The position numbers and the translations under genes were made by a program. The notes beneath the pieces were generated by a model that ran no database searches, was not told the origin of the DNA, and saw only the letters and a list, made by a program, of their open reading frames with translations. 64,000 nucleotides of DNA from Scenedesmus sp. PABB004. Its lineage: Eukaryota. Where the stretch lies: the NCBI GenBank assembly GCA_014905635.1, contig CM026547.1, positions 868,001 to 932,000 of the forward strand. Direction: 5' to 3'. The stretch's first letter is position 1. Each line of letters begins with the position of its first letter. Positions 31,214 through 37,954 of this stretch are shown here, piece after piece.

Positions 31214-33744
31214 GGCGGCGAACGCCGACGCGCACCGCCGCCGCCGCCGCCGCCGCCGCCGTCGCCGCCGGCCCGCGCCGCAAGCGCCGCCGCGAGGGCG
31301 TAGAGCCAGCGGACCACGAGCACGTGCCCCCGCCGGCCGTGGAAGTCAGTGAGCACATACTGCAGCACCAGGTCCGCCAGGCCGTCCGCCTGCGGCGCCT
31401 GCGCGACCAGCCGGCTCAGCAGCAGCTCCCGAAAGTGCCGGATCGGCCGGCTCTTGTCCGCGGCGAGGATGCGCTGCACCGCCGCCTGGCGCATGCCCGC
31501 GACCTGCCGGTCGCTCAGGGAGAGCGGCAGCGGGCCGGGCGGCGGCGCGGCGCCCGCCGCGCCCGCGGCCGGCCGCCGCGCGGCGGCCACCGCCGCGCCC
31601 GCCGCCGCGCGGCGCCGCGGGTCGACCGGCGCCGCGGCGACGGCCTGCTGCTGCTGCGCGGCGGCCGCAAACAGCGCGGCCGCGGGCGCCTGGCCCACCA
31701 GCGCCATGGGGCCGCCGAGCGCCGCGTCTGGCACACCGGCGACCGCCGCGGGCTGCGGGACATCGCTCGTGGGCTTGGCTGGCAGATTGTCCATCCACCG
31801 CAGCACCAGCTCCGACAGCACCTCGGGCGGCAGCTGCGCCAGAACCATCTGCGCGCGGCGGCGGCGGCGGCGTCAAGGGCGGCGGCAGCGGCGCCGGTGC
31901 AAGCGGCGCACGCGCCGCGCCAAGCAGAGTTGGCTGCCTGCCCTGGGCCCTGGCGCCCCGCGTGCCGCCGCCCGTACCTCCACGGCCTGGGCCTGCTGGC
32001 TCGCCACGAGCGCCTCCAGCACGCGCTGCACGTCCGTGGTGGGGTCGGCGGTGCGCGACAGGCCCCCCGGCAGCAGCGCGGCCAGCATGTCGCCGCCGCC
32101 GTGCTGCCCGCCTCCCAGCATGGGCGTCGGCGTGGGCGTGCGCGCGGGCGTGTCGCCAATGGACGAGTCGGCGCCCGCGAACGCCACCCCGCGCGCGTGC
32201 TTGGCCTCGGGCCCGCCCTGCTGCTCCGCCTTTCGCTTCTCGGCGCGCGCCCTGCAGCGCGCAGCGTGCGGAGCGGGCGGCGGCGGTGGTGCCGCGGCGC
32301 AGCAGCCACGCCGCACACACGGGCTGGCGCGGCGCGCAGACGCCCGCCCGCGCGCGCCGCGCACCTCGCCGCCTGGCGCTCGATGTGGCGCTGCGCCGAG
32401 TCGGCCACGGCGTCGGCGCCCATCGCCCGCAGCGCGCCGTCCAGCCGCGCCTGCCAGGGCCGCAGGGGCTCGGCGTTGCCGCGCAGCAGGCGGGCCAGCA
32501 CGTCCCTGAGCGCCGCGCCGCAGCTCGCTGCGACGCCTGACTGGCCGTCGCCCGGCGCCGGCGCCTTGAGCACGCCCTGGCGCGCGGGCGGGATGCGGGC
32601 GGGGTCGGGCGTTGCGCGGCGGCGGCCGGGTCGCGCCGCGCCGGGGCGCGGCAGCCGCGGTCGGCGCAGCGCCGCGCGCCGCGGCGCGCGCCGCACCTGC
32701 GTGGCCAGCTCCAGCAGCGGCGGCAGCGCGCCACCCAGCAGCGCGTCGCGCGCGGCGCACAGCGTGGCCAGCGCCTTGATGGCACAGATGGTCACCGGCC
32801 CCGGCTGCGCCGCCGGCGGCGCGAGCAGGCCGCCGAGCGCCGCGACGAGCCCGGCCGCGTCCGCACCCAGCGCCGCCGCGTCGGGCGTGCCCGCCGCCGC
32901 GCCGCCGGTGAAGACGAGCGCCGCCTGCTCGGCGAGCTTGATGCACGCCACGCGCAGGCCCACGTCGCCGCCGCCCGCCGCGAGGCCACGCGCCGTGTCG
33001 GCGAGCTGCCGCGCCGCGCACGCCGCGGCGGCGGCAGCGTCGTCGCCACGCGGCGCCGCCGCGCGCGCCGCGAGGCCCGCGCGCAGCACGGCGTGCGCCG
33101 CGAGCGCCGCGTGCTTTGCGAGCGGGACGTGCTCGTCCTGCAGCAGCGCCGCGAGCGCAGGCGCGGCGTGCGAGATGACGCCCGGCGCGATGCCGCGCGC
33201 CTCCACCGCGGCCGCGAGCAGCTCCACCAGCCGCCGCCGCACCGACGCCGCCTTGTCGACCTGCCGCACGCGGCGGCCGGGGCGGTGGTGTGCGTGTGTG
33301 CGTGTGTGTGTGTGTGGGGGGGGGGTGCGCTGGGGCTGGGGAGAGCGCCCAGCCGCAGCGCGGCGCGTGCGGGCGCCGCCCGGCCCGGCCGCTGCGGCGG
33401 CGTGCTGAGCTGGGGCCGCGCAGCAGCGCGGCCGCGGCACCGCTGTGCTGCTGGCGGTGCCGCGGCGGTCGCGGCGGCGCGCACCTGAAAGTCAAGCAGC
33501 TCCGGCAGGAACGCCTCGAGCAGCGCCGGCTCGCCCTTCACCAGCAGCTCGTGCACCTCGCCCAGATGCTGCACCTGCGCGCGCGCAGGCCAGCAGCGGA
33601 CTGAGCTGAGGTCGCGGCGGCGGGCGCCCGCTGCGGCCGCCGCCGCTACTGCTGCTGCCGCCGCCGCACCTTCTGCGCCGCCTTGCTGGCGAGCTTGGCC
33701 GCGTTGATGGCCACCACCACCATGTCCTCAGTCCCGCCCGACAT
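28899..33744 (-). CDS. SYMPK: Symplekin (Pta1/ESP4-like 3'-end processing scaffold); two apparent frameshifts (near 30210 and 29003)
   Basis: FLPELLDFQVDKAASVRRRLVELL at the N-terminus; C-terminal motifs FKPTELLVALH, PLPQLFMRTVITAL, LKRLITKQVW, WRGFL, SYPVLLTLP; minus-strand TGTAA at 28782-28786. Confidence 0.9.
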
Positions 33745-34094
33745 GGCGCCCGGGCGCCGAGCGCTGGTGGCGAGCGTCAGCCCATCAATCACTCGCTGCT
33801 GCCGCCCCCTGCTGCCGCGTTTTGCCTCCGCAGAGCGCGGCCTCCGGCCAAGAGCCACGGCGCGAGCGGGCGCGCGGGGGTTGAGTTCGGTTGAGCCCTG
33901 GGCAAGTCCAAACCTGCCGCTGCTGAGCGCAGCTTCTCCTCTCCTCAGTCTTCTCTCTGCACCGCCGCCGCAGCACACCGCCGTCTTTGCAGCCGCAGCC
34001 GCACCGCGATCGGCGGCCGCCGCAGCGATCGGCCGCGCGTGCGCCGCCGCCGGAGCAGCGCGCGAGCGGCGGCGAGCGCCGCGAGCGGCGGGCG

Positions 34095-35802
34095 ATGGCC
34101 CCCGACGACGCAGGGGAGCTGGAGGGCTACCTGCGCCGCCGCGTGGCGAAGGCCTTCCCGGGCTACGGGCCGGAGCCGTTCGGCGGTGCGCGCGGCGGCG
34201 GCGGCGGCGTGCGCACGCCCCAGGCGCGCGGCGTGCGCACGCCGCGCGAGACGCCCGCCGCGCCCCGCAGGCGTGGTGGACAAGGTGGATGCCAGAGACG
34301 CGGAGACGCCGTTCCACGTGAGCGGCGGCCGCAGCGCGCGAGCTGCGGGGCGCGGGCGCGCGGGCGCGCGGCCGCCGACGGCGCCCCCTGCTGGCGCGGC
34401 GCAGATCGCCTACGATGACGGCGACAGCGAGTGGGTGTCGGCCGCAGAGTGAGCGCGCAGCGCGGCGGCGCTCGGCGCGCGCCCTCGCCGCGCGGCGCTG
34501 CCCAGTTCACGCCGCCCGCCCGCGCCGCGCAGGCTGCAAAAGATCCTCCTGGCGCCGGCCAGCGCCCGCGGCGGCGGCGCGGCGGCGTCCCAGAGTGAGC
34601 GCCCCCGCGCCCGGCACCGCGGGCAGCTGCACGGCCGGCGCGCGTCCCCGCGCCCACGCATCTTTGCCCGCCCGCCCCGCAGAGAAGCGCGGCCGGCCGC
34701 CCGAGAGCGCGGCGGCTGCCGCGGACGACGCGCCGCCCCGTGAGCGCGCACTCCAGCGGCGGCAGCGTCTGCAGCGCGGCAGCGGCTGCGCGACGACGCC
34801 CCGCCCGCCCGCGCCGCACCGCAGCCAAGAAGCGTGGACGGCCACCCAAGAACGCGGCCGCCGCGGGCGCCCCCGCCGACGCCAAGCCCGCCGACACCGC
34901 AGCCAAGAGTGCGCAGTGCGCTGGGCTCGCTCGCGCCGCGGGCCGTCACCCCGCGCCAGCCCCGCGCCGCTCAGACGGTCGCTCGCGCCCCGCCCACAGA
35001 GCCGCGCGGGCGGCCGCCGTCGGCGGCCAAGGGCGACGAGCAGCCGGCGGGCAGCGGCACCGCTCCTGGCGTCGCGTCGGCCGGCAGGGGCGGCAGGGGC
35101 GGCAGGGGCGGCGGCCGCGGCGGCGGCGGCGGCCGCGGCAGGGGCGGCCGCGGGTCGGGCGCGGGCTCCAGCAGGGCGGCGGCCGCCGCACCGCCGGCCA
35201 GCCCCCTGGTCGACCTGTCCGCCCTGGTCGGCGCCATCGCGCGCAGCGCGGACGCCAGCAAGGTGCGCGGCGCGCCTGTCGGCACGCGCCTGCCCCGTGC
35301 GCGGCGCCGCACGGGCCGCCGCCAACAGCCGCCGCCGCTCCGCGCGCGCCCGAAGCTCGCCGCCGCGCGCCAGGTGTCTCGCGTGGCCTACCGGGGCGCG
35401 GGCGCGGCGGCGCTGCCTGGCATGAGCTCGGCGGTCGTCGCCGGCGGCACGCTGCAAGCGACGCTGTACGGCGCGCCGCGCGCCGCGGCCGCCCCCGGCC
35501 GCGCGGGTGCCAGCGGCGGCGGCGGCGGCGGCGGCGGCCCCGACTATGCGTCAGAGGCGCGGGCGCTGCTGGCGGAGCTCGACCGGCTGCTCGCCGGCGC
35601 GGGCGCGAGCAAGCACGCGCTGGTGCGCGTTCGCGTGACCCTACGGAGCGTCGCTGCCGGCCTGCCCCCATTCAGGGCCGCGTGGGACGCGTGGGTCGAC
35701 TGCGCGTCGCTGCCGGTGCTGACGCTCGTCGAGGGCGCCGGGCCCCTCGCGGGCGCGGGCGTCGTGCTCGAGGCCACCGCGGCGCTGCCGGGCGCGGAGT
35801 AA
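34095..35802 (+). CDS. Tudor-like + 3 AT-hooks + RGG + RidA/YjgF/UK114-fold fusion protein (~358 aa, 8 exons)
   Basis: Exons 34095-34185, 34271-34317, 34405-34448, 34533-34594, 34683-34739, 34825-34908, 35000-35262, 35374-35802 join in frame through GT-AG introns; RRVAKAF...FHIAYDDGDSEW; KKRGRPP x2, KPRGRPP; LAELDRLLAGAGASK...AAWDAWVD. Confidence 0.82.
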
Positions 35803-36023
35803 ACGCTGCCAGCGTTTACTCGACGGTTTGCTTGCGCGCGCGGCGTTAGAACGGCGGCCGCGCGGCGGTTCAACACAGCGGTCCCGCGCCGCCTCTCCCG
35901 TGACCGCGCGCCCATCGCTGCTGCCGCCGCACAGCCGACGCGCCCGCCGCTGCCAGCCGCACAGCCCGGCCGCCGGCGGCCGCGCACCAGCGCGCACGCA
36001 GACGCGCGCGGCGTTCGCTGGCA

Positions 36024-37954
36024 ATGGAAGGTCCGATGGATCCCGCGCTGCTGGCGTGGATGCTGCGCATCGAGGAGACGGAGGTGCGGGCCTGAGAGGC
36101 TCGAGCCGAGCACCGCCGACGCCGCCTGCTGATTCGGGCGGCGGGCGCCGCCGCCGACGCGGGCGCCGCGGGGCCGCAGAAGCTTCTGGGCACGCGGAAG
36201 GCCGACCTGGCGGCCCAGCAGGCGCGGCGGATCGAGCTGGAGCGCGAGCTGGCTGCAGAGGACGCGGCGCACGTGCGGCGCGCTGCTCGCGGCTCGCGCA
36301 GGCCCGGCCGCGCTGCGGCGCCGTGCTGCCTGCCGCGGCTCTGCCGCAGGCCAAGGCAGCAATCTGCCCCCCTGCTCCAGGACGCGGCGCGCGAGGAGCT
36401 GGCGGCCGTGCGGGAGGCGACGCACGCGCTCATGCGCGCGCGGCTCGCGGCGGGCCGCGACATCCAGGCGGCGCGCGATCAGCTCGCCGCGGCGCAGGCC
36501 ACCGCACCGTGAGCGGCGCACGCGCGGCCGGCCCGCACCGCGCCGCGCCGCGCCCACGCTGCGCCGCCCGGCTGCAGGCTGGTGGTGGAGCAGCGGTGCC
36601 TGCAGGAGCGGCTGGCGCGCCTCGCCGCCGCCCCGCGCGGTGAGGAGCAGGTGCAGCAGCAGTACGAGGCCAGCGTGGCGACGCACATGGACGACTGCGC
36701 CGCGCCGGCCAGGGCGTTGGAGGCCAAGGCTGCCAAGGTGCGCCGCGCGACGTCGCTGGTGACCCGGCGTGCGGCTGTGTGCTGCCTCGGCGCGCGTGCG
36801 AGGTCCTGCACACCCACCGCGCGCTGTGGAAGGGGCCGGGGAGGGCTGGCGGCCAGGCGCGCGCCGCGGTGCCGCCCTGTTAGTCGCCACCCGCCCGGCG
36901 GGGGCCGCCTGCGCGGTGTGCGTGGCGCGCGTGGGCGCTCACAAGGCTCGGGGGCGTGTCTGCAGCAGTCCTCAGGGCCTGGCGCGCGCGGTCAACCCGC
37001 CCTGCTTTGGCCGGTGTCACCGGCGCCGCGCCGGCAGCCGCACCGGGCAGGCACGCGTGCAGCGGGGTCTCTCGGTCACAGCGCGAGGCGCTGCCCCGCG
37101 CGTCCCCGGCACCGCGGCTGCCCCCGCTGATACGCTCGCATCCGGGGCCGCGGTCGCGGCCCGCTGCGCCAACCGGGGGCCGGCACGCCCCGTCGCGCGG
37201 CGCACGTTGCGTCGCCCCACAAGCGTCGGCGCTCGCCCGGGCGACGCGGCGAGGCTCGGGGCGCAGCAGTCCTCGGAGCCTGGCGTGCGCGGTCAGCCCC
37301 GGCTCCGCCGCCCTGCAGCGGCGCTGCACTCGGGCACCGCCGGCGGTGCCTCGAGGCGTTTCGAGAGACTGACGGCGCGCCCCCGCTGCGCCACACAGGC
37401 CGAGGCGGCGCTGGAGCGGCTGCAGCGGCAGCACGCGGAGCTGGGTCTGGAGCAGCAGCTGGCGCAGCTCGCAGCGGAGCGCGAGGAGCTGCGCGGCGAG
37501 GCGGAGCGCCTGACGCGCGCGCTGGCGACGGCCGAGCATGCCAGCGCCGCCCGGGCGGCCAAGGTCGCGGCCGCCGCCGCCAGCACCGCCGCCGAGCTCG
37601 CGGCCGCCCAGGTGGGCAGCGGCGCAGCGCGGCAGCGGGGGAATCGGGCGCGCGGCGGCTGACGCGGCGCCGCGGCGCGTCGCAGGAGCGGCTGGCCGTG
37701 CTCAGGGCCGAGGCGTTTGAGGGCGGCCGCCGCCACGCCGTGAACGGCGCCAGGTGAGGGCCTCGGCCGAGCGCCGGCGGGCGGCGCGCTGCGCCGACGC
37801 GCGCGCGCGCGCGCTCAGCCCCGCCCCGCCCCCGCCGCGCAGGCTGCGGCAGCTCTGCGTGGAGGAGGGGGCGCTCGCGCAGCAGGCTGCCGAGCTCGAC
37901 GCCCAGATCGCCCGCGCGGCGGCCGCGCTGGACCAGCTGGCCGGCGACGTGTGA
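36024..37954 (+). CDS. Uncharacterised coiled-coil protein (7 exons)
   Basis: MEGPMDPALLAWMLRIEETE|KLLGTRKADLAAQQARRIELERELAAE...AEAALERLQRQHAELGLEQQLAQLAAEREELRGEAERL...LDQLAGDV*; six phase-consistent GT-AG introns; E/Q/A/L/R heptads. Confidence 0.72.
36754..37254 (+). repeat. Left arm of a ~500-bp inverted repeat (inside intron 36738-37398)
   Basis: Reverse complement of 38181-38683; I saw 2 substitutions and one 2-bp indel. Confidence 0.95.

Follow-up and report, generated by a model that had tools for sequence, protein, structure and literature searches.

Typical Rid proteins are small enzymes that stand alone and guard metabolism from reactive imines. Bacterial Rid2 proteins (PA5083, PSPTO_0102, S. 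enterica YoaB) are about 115 aa long and keep a catalytic Arg; PA5083 and PSPTO_0102 are given as Rid2 representatives in Table 3 of PMC5619798, and the abstract of that source places Rid1-7 only in prokaryotes. The Arg holds the carboxylate of the substrate, and imine hydrolysis depends on it: its replacement by Ala nearly abolishes activity, and Arg-less Rid7 is inactive (as reported in PMC4433059). The same account describes Rid4-Rid7 as being without the catalytic Arg and as having a function that is unknown or not that of a deaminase. In chromatin, the Tudor domain of Arabidopsis RDM15 (PDS5C) has been solved with H3K4me1 (PDB 7DE9), recognition involving W616, Y623, Y641, D643, D645 and E647 (PMC8184781); RDM15 itself is of the PDS5 type, carries its Tudor at the C-terminus and lacks a Rid domain. 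DNA and RNA contacts are made in other proteins, of the HMGA and RGG-box types, by R-G-R-P cores flanked by Lys and Pro and by RGG/RG repeats. The stretch of DNA analyzed here, the window, comprises 64,000 nucleotides (nt) of Scenedesmus sp. PABB004 (GCA_014905635.1, contig CM026547.1, positions 868,001 to 932,000 of the forward strand; positions below count from its first letter). On its plus strand lies a gene (34095..35802) of eight exons and seven introns whose 358-aa product joins elements of these kinds: an N-terminal Tudor-like module, a linker that bears three AT-hooks followed by an RGG box, and, at the C-terminus, a Rid2-like domain. As judged by sequence comparison, Tudor and Rid belong to one gene, and the fusion is real and conserved in other green algae. 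The domains themselves are known and the architecture already stands, unstudied, in public proteomes; the locus is a variant of known domains, not a one-off.

The fusion is carried by a search that used the Rid exon alone. The unspliced coding part of exon 8 (35374-35799), compared with 1.84 billion representative proteins, gives 70 matches at E<=1e-3, the best of which (P0001, 167 aa) is 55% identical (2.8e-31). Five of the 70 (P0011, P0014, P0016, P0036 and P0066) have N-termini that resemble the spliced upstream exons of the window, and the other 65 do not. In phmmer, the spliced N-terminus matches P0016, P0014, P0011 and P0036 with E-values of 1e-10 to 1e-13; P0066, a fragment, gives 5e-5. 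Because these relatives were retrieved by the Rid exon only, their common Tudor N-terminus is independent support for the fusion; exons 1-4 are also supported, because the N-terminal alignments cross three splice junctions. Both PF21743 and PF01042 are above the Pfam cut-off in P0011, P0014, P0036, P0071 and P0072, and P0016 passes PF21743 and reaches 27.2 bits for PF01042 against a cut-off of 27.3. PF21743 scores in the relatives are 44-52 bits, and PF01042 is passed at 71-80 bits. At least seven other public proteins share the architecture (the six just named and P0066). Four carriers have names, and all are trebouxiophytes: Coccomyxa sp. Obi (P0036, annotated 'probable rutC family protein YoaB at C-terminar half'), C. 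elongata (P0071, g2455), C. subellipsoidea (P0072, WJX75_003727) and Parachlorella kessleri (P0016, N2152v2_009843). The algal proteins have the same order of PF21743, disordered basic linker and C-terminal PF01042, although the identity of their Rid domains to that of the window is just 29-38%. They are database entries for which no experimental work was found, and a literature search, with subscription journals outside its coverage, found no paper on the Tudor-Rid architecture. The locus, a nuclear gene with introns in a green alga of very high G+C content, represents an unstudied conserved algal family in which a long, basic and disordered linker connects an N-terminal PTM/DIR17-type Tudor to a Rid2-like domain at the C-terminus.

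Other searches added little. No longer homologue of exon 8 appeared at E<=1e-3 among 8000 candidates, a list probably crowded by low-complexity words. Residues 285-393 of P0016 recovered P0016 itself only, and in the ESM Atlas the P0016 query gave no usable feature match, its structure rows being bacterial PF01042 clusters only. A first-pass annotation, made from the letters alone, had proposed a single fused gene of an undescribed architecture and had advised looking for it in other proteins. The single gene is borne out by the Rid-exon search, and the architecture was indeed found in Coccomyxa and Parachlorella; it is not unique, given at least seven other public proteins, and the part of the claim that stands is that no paper on it was found.

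The gene model has to be judged against an unusual base composition. The region is 73-85% G+C (about 80% around the gene), and 42 stop-free open reading frames (ORFs) of at least 60 aa overlap 33000-37000, with all frames represented. Open frames alone are worthless as gene evidence here, because long stop-free ORFs fill every frame. The spliced reading runs from an ATG at 34095 to a TAA at 35800-35802 through exons 1 (34095-34185), 2 (34271-34317), 3 (34405-34448), 4 (34533-34594), 5 (34683-34739), 6 (34825-34908), 7 (35000-35262) and 8 (35374-35802, including the stop). All seven introns are GT..AG and 84-111 nt long, with GTGAGC or GTGCGC donors and CAG acceptors. The coding sequence of 1077 nt encodes 358 aa and a stop, with G+C at third codon positions (GC3) of 0.93 vs 0.68 at second positions (GC2). 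Its start lies 8 residues upstream of the homologues' Met, and its stop coincides with the homologues' ends. The eight in-frame exons, the peptides and the 35262/35374 junction of the first-pass annotation are all correct in coordinates and translation. Intron 7 (35263..35373, plus strand; 111 nt, GTGCGC...CCAG) is a multiple of three and stop-free in frame; P0001 can be aligned over the exon 7/8 junction with only 4 extra residues. Introns 2 (34318-34404) and 3 (34449-34532) are likewise divisible by three, and intron 2 is also stop-free in frame. Retention of intron 2 or 7 would merely add residues, since both are stop-free multiples of three; in-frame, stop-free introns are probably a by-product of the extreme G+C. 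Six overlapping antisense or alternative-frame ORFs gave no Pfam match, and when metagenome contigs were searched for related loci, none of 599 pattern matches was confirmed.

The Tudor-like module occupies residues 12-66, encoded by exons 1-4 (34128..34548, plus strand) and interrupted by introns 1-3. A hidden Markov model (HMM) built from six PF21743-passing segments served as a proxy; it gives the spliced N-terminus 71.1 bits, whereas none of 2000 shuffles exceeds 12.4. When the N-termini of six homologues are combined in a profile, this finds 7de9 in the PDB at 1.5e-4 and the Tudor of LBR (lamin-B-receptor) at 1.1e-3. Family-invariant F, F, Y, D, D and E align with the six H3K4me1-binding residues of RDM15 in the order given above, and their counterparts in the window, placed through the family profile, are F21, F29, Y49, D51, D53 and E55. 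The three residues of the aromatic cage, the two Asp that hold the methylammonium and the Glu for H3R2 are all matched, by sequence only. Unlike RDM15, with W616 and Y623 in its cage, the window's family has Phe and Phe, and its Tudor is N-terminal and combined with Rid. Because the binding residues of RDM15 correspond to the family-invariant residues, a low-methyl lysine mark of the H3K4me1 kind would be the candidate ligand, and we infer that the Tudor reads low-methyl lysine. The title of bioRxiv 10.1101/2021.09.19.460975 indicates that green algae have H3K4me1, and ECOD places PF21743 with Tudor domains in an SH3-like group (PMC11836899). The model of the orthologue P0036 has four strands and a short helix in residues 8-54, with a predicted local distance difference test score (pLDDT) of 83-91. 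The PTM/DIR17-type Tudor of the first-pass annotation is supported, given relatives that pass PF21743 and to which the window's spliced N-terminus aligns.

The linker carries AT-hook 1 (KKRGRPP, residues 82-88; 34683..34702, with the first Lys codon starting at 34594), AT-hook 2 (KKRGRPP, residues 102-108; 34827..34847) and AT-hook 3 (KPRGRPP, residues 129-135; 35000..35019, first Lys codon from 34908), followed by an RGG box, a 23-residue RG(G) run (residues 158-180; 35086..35154), all on the plus strand. An AT-hook is an R-G-R-P core with basic flanks that binds the DNA minor groove, and an RGG/RG box consists of three or more closely spaced RGG/RG repeats; the first definition fits three times here and the second once, as the first-pass annotation had seen. 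Each AT-hook stands at the very start of an exon (5, 6 and 7), and the phase-1 introns ahead of hooks 1 and 3 interrupt the first Lys codon of each. The look of a repeated exon unit (34683-35019) suggests that the three AT-hooks arose by exon duplication. AT-hook-like RGR(P/K) cores occur in P0011, P0036 and P0066, and none of the green-algal Tudor-Rid relatives compared combines three AT-hooks with an RGG box. The RGG box is not a family feature, since it is confined to the window's copy among the Tudor-bearing relatives examined. Unlike in HMGA-type and RGG proteins, the motifs sit in the linker of a two-domain protein and in a DNA context of about 80% G+C. In the model of P0036, a disordered stretch of about 135 residues (residues 60-194) connects two folded domains (pLDDT 74-91).

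The Rid2-like domain is encoded by exon 8 (coding part 35374..35799, plus strand), with a fold core at residues 232-356 (35419-35793). In phmmer, the best solved Rid proteins are PA5083 (4e-6), NMB1025 (5e-4) and PSPTO_0102 (8.5e-4). The AlphaFold2 model, from 44 aligned sequences, has a pLDDT of 84.4 and a predicted TM score (pTM) of 0.77, with the core at pLDDT 95-97. Foldseek returns 154 PDB matches at E<=1e-3; those listed are all Rid-family, with top TM(target) values of 0.80-0.83, and are headed by 9bk1 (PSPTO0102, 2.3e-9), then NMB1025 and PA5083, with 3gtz also among the best solved matches. The Coccomyxa orthologue gives 6e-20 (PSPTO_0102) and 2e-15 for Rid2 proteins vs 3.5e-9 for Arabidopsis RidA and 1.2e-5 for E. 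coli YjgF. Because Rid2 proteins are matched far better than RidA proper, the domain is Rid2-derived; from the sequence this is the appropriate label, rather than Rid2 member, as the Arg is lost and the last of eight exons in a larger gene encodes the domain. Sequence and fold comparisons agree with the Rid2/YoaB-type assignment of the first-pass annotation. A Gly-rich insert with a run of eight Gly (35506-35538, exon-8 residues ~45-55) lies in the loop that links the first strands to helix 1; nowhere else in the core region does pLDDT fall below 50 (here at exon-8 residues 48-52), and P0001 has an even longer Ser/Ala-rich insert at this site.

The window's domain has the fold of Rid2 proteins, and their trimer is also the assembly predicted for it. 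Three copies of exon 8, modeled without the 44-sequence alignment, reach an interface score (ipSAE) of 0.90 vs 0.03 for the best of 3 controls, and the trimer runs have at least 98% contact agreement and a partner pLDDT of at least 84. In calibration the mark was reached by 21/30 proteins solved as same-chain pairs and by 0/23 solved as single chains; for eukaryotic proteins the figures are 17/29 overall, 1/7 for those without an older solved relative and 0/30 for single chains. The modeling thus predicts the trimer that the first-pass annotation had envisaged, possibly as an echo of solved trimers, and trimerization or metabolite sensing may be the function of the domain.

In contrast to bacterial Rid2, the window has Leu (PVLT; exon-8 residue 116, codon 35719..35721) at the position of catalytic Arg105 of RidA. 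Three alignments agree on this, one pairwise to PA5083 and two of the family, and the loss reported by the first-pass annotation stands. Its claim that the conserved Glu has become Val depends on the alignment. At V131-L132-E133 (exon-8 numbering, the Glu120 region; 35764..35772, plus strand), two family alignments anchored on the C-terminal AAxP place V131 at the Glu site, whereas the pairwise phmmer alignment to PA5083 places E133 there by way of a 2-residue gap. Both residues face the predicted subunit interface. An earlier view that the Glu is clearly retained was dropped, since the family alignments place V131 there and leave an ambiguity.

The loss of Arg can be followed in the relatives. 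Arg and the Glu of V-E-I/V are kept in five of the eight Tudor-Rid proteins, the window included (P0011, P0014, P0036, P0071 and P0072), and P0016 is also Arg-less, with Met at the site. Because most keep both residues, the fusion is older than the Arg loss. The pocket-lining motifs F..W..W and LP are conserved in Arg-less members, and the Arg-less state is common to relatives at 30-55% identity. A quick tree of 78 segments (those of at least 95 aa among 87 extracted domain segments) places all Tudor- or AT-hook-linked proteins in one 24-row group (Shimodaira-Hasegawa-like approximate likelihood ratio test, SH-aLRT, 93), 14 rows of which are without Arg. A careful tree of 35 rows, from which P0035, P0039, P0062 and P0066 were dropped for truncated or doubtful C-termini and to which 12 hand-picked outgroup rows were added, joins the window to P0001 with support 97/90. 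On it the Arg state needs 3 changes vs a shuffled mean of 10.7 (0/500 shuffles as low). Since so few changes are needed, the loss is inherited in a diverged clade and is not a private decay. The 'dead' domain of the first-pass annotation is accordingly right about the missing Arg in this copy and wrong about the fusion, which was not born dead; Arg loss is a lineage state. Rid4-Rid7 differ from this case, being separate bacterial subfamilies with Trp or variable residues in place of Arg; the window's domain falls among Rid2-like sequences and has lost its Arg secondarily.

Among further Rid-exon relatives (P0002, P0005, P0010, P0023, P0024 and P0031) are single chains in which three to six Rid2-like domains follow one another; P0002, with two domains without Arg and one with it, resembles a covalent trimer with mixed sites. 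P0026, P0027 and P0045 are 593-687 aa long and have an Arg-less C-terminal Rid domain that groups with that of the window on the careful tree. Pfam finds no Tudor in these three; an AT-hook-like KKGRPR/KRGRPR core is present in P0027 and P0045, and an RGG-like run in P0026. The three may show that the Arg-less lineage has another architecture, or their gene models may be incomplete.

Taken as a whole, the locus is best explained as encoding a multivalent scaffold that forms trimers and binds chromatin and RNA, and in which the Rid module of this copy does not act as an imine deaminase. This explanation, which blends architecture and mechanism, is moderately favored: the gene and its architecture are highly probable, and the mechanism is tentative, somewhat short of probable. 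The Rid domain is predicted to form its usual homotrimer, which would display three Tudor modules and nine AT-hooks. The Tudor would read a low-methyl lysine mark of the H3K4me1 kind, and the AT-hooks and RGG box would supply additional DNA/RNA contacts. The Arg-less copy would not hydrolyze 2-imino acids, and its inter-subunit pocket may be purely structural or may bind a non-carboxylate ligand. Of the first-pass annotation's overall picture, the gene, the Tudor, the Rid2-type domain and the Arg loss persist; uniqueness and a domain dead at its origin do not, and the Glu remains alignment-dependent.

Several observations count against the scaffold. Exon 8 itself scores 19.3 bits (E 1.2e-3) for PF01042, below the gathering score of 27.3, and matches 0 NCBIfam families; Pfam on unspliced N-terminal pieces of the window also gave 0 matches. 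The search for RNA support among sequencing runs returned no RNA run, just three metagenome DNA runs, each with 0.05-0.07 of the words. P0001, the nearest relative, is recorded as a 167-aa protein without a Tudor. DNA of about 80% G+C leaves AT-hooks few AT-rich targets. The trimer result indicates likeness and may only echo the solved Rid trimers. The odd amino-acid composition of the window's row can distort its placement on the tree. Finally, with Arg and Glu retained in five of the eight Tudor-Rid proteins, the family may originally have had a catalytic role and not a structural one.

Some of these points would suit a misread gene. Two genes might have been wrongly merged: one with the Tudor, AT-hooks and RGG box that would stop within or close to intron 7, and a small Rid gene of its own that would begin at ATG 35422, which lies immediately before the first Rid strand; the stand-alone record of P0001 and the search that returned no RNA run would agree with this. 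However, the same domain order recurs in seven other proteins retrieved by the Rid exon only, and exon 7 is stop-free and ends at a canonical donor, just 160 nt before ATG 35422. The sequence VSRVAYRGAGAAALPG, upstream of the sole Met of exon 8, is conserved in P0001, which aligns over the junction as well, and the 678-nt open frame ahead of that Met (34744-35421) has no alternative in-frame ATG. Merged genes are therefore very improbable. A decaying copy, a relic whose Rid domain is drifting and has lost its Arg and gained poly-Gly and poly-Ala loop inserts, is equally improbable: the Arg loss, the sub-threshold Pfam score of exon 8 and the poorly modeled Gly-rich insert would fit, but the frame is open through eight exons with 14/14 canonical splice sites, GC3 far exceeds GC2, the core is modeled at pLDDT 95-97 and the Arg-less state is shared with the diverged relatives.

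The remaining alternatives accept the gene and differ from the scaffold in its function. The Rid-like domain could be chemically active, as a chromatin-tethered enzyme or small-molecule sensor: Arg-retaining orthologues would hydrolyze imines near chromatin, and the hydrophobic pocket of Arg-less copies would have been retuned to a non-carboxylate substrate or ligand. Such activity would account for the Arg and Glu kept by most of the family, for the F..W..W and LP motifs in Arg-less members and for the persistence of Arg-less domains through a diverged clade. We know of no ligand for any Arg-less Rid protein, which speaks against it. Rid2 proteins do hydrolyze imines from FAD-dependent oxidases (reported in PMC4433059 and PMC5619798), although the near-inactive Arg-to-Ala variants and inactive Rid7 described in the former make an active Arg-less pocket doubtful; overall an active domain is unlikely. 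A mainly RNA-binding protein is rather less likely. It would act, for example, in nucleoli or ribonucleoprotein granules, the RGG box and the Rid ('L-PSP') domain engaging RNA and the Tudor reading methyl-Arg or methyl-Lys on non-histone proteins. Rid-family proteins were first named endoribonuclease L-PSP, which is also the Pfam name of PF01042; the Tudor class includes methyl-arginine readers, RGG boxes are themselves methylated, and the protein has the 23-residue RGG run. That run, however, occurs solely in the window's copy among the Tudor-bearing relatives, the invariant Tudor residues fit a histone methyl-lysine reader, and AT-hooks are minor-groove DNA motifs. A more speculative proposal, and a long shot, is that Tudor-Rid proteins link the chemistry of imines to the methylation of histone lysines. 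LSD1 catalysis passes through an imine; the Tudor would sit on H3K4me1-type marks, and the Rid2-derived trimer would act on or sense the imine intermediates left on lysine by FAD-dependent amine-oxidase (LSD1-type) demethylases, or related small imines. In Arg-less copies a hydrophobic residue would then have replaced the carboxylate-binding Arg to suit a carboxylate-free substrate or ligand.

The surroundings of the gene are poor in recognizable domains. Within 33500-34094, a reverse-strand ATG near 33746 seems to mark the beginning of a head-to-head neighbor encoded on the minus strand, leaving about 350 nt of shared upstream region, which is the least G+C-rich stretch nearby (0.726); the long ORFs of this neighbor gave no Pfam match. 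Downstream, a plus-strand gene (36025-37662, ATG 36025) has Ala/Glu/Arg-rich, coiled-coil-like exons. Among four neighboring ORFs, Pfam gave a single weak TolA_bind_tri match, in the downstream gene (17.9 bits vs a cut-off of 30.1).

In this family of green-algal proteins, histone-reader-like and DNA/RNA-binding-like parts are accompanied by a Rid2-derived domain that is conserved at the C-terminus. If the family is nuclear, a metabolic fold may have been reused on chromatin as a hub for trimerization or ligand binding; alternatively, the Arg-retaining orthologues may bring an imine-handling activity to chromatin. Were imine chemistry truly coupled to histone methylation, no Rid-family protein before this one would have had a role in chromatin, and the lineage would be the first of Rid2 type in eukaryotes. 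The coexistence of Arg-retaining fusions (the Coccomyxa type) and Arg-less ones (the window and Parachlorella) offers a natural comparison pair.

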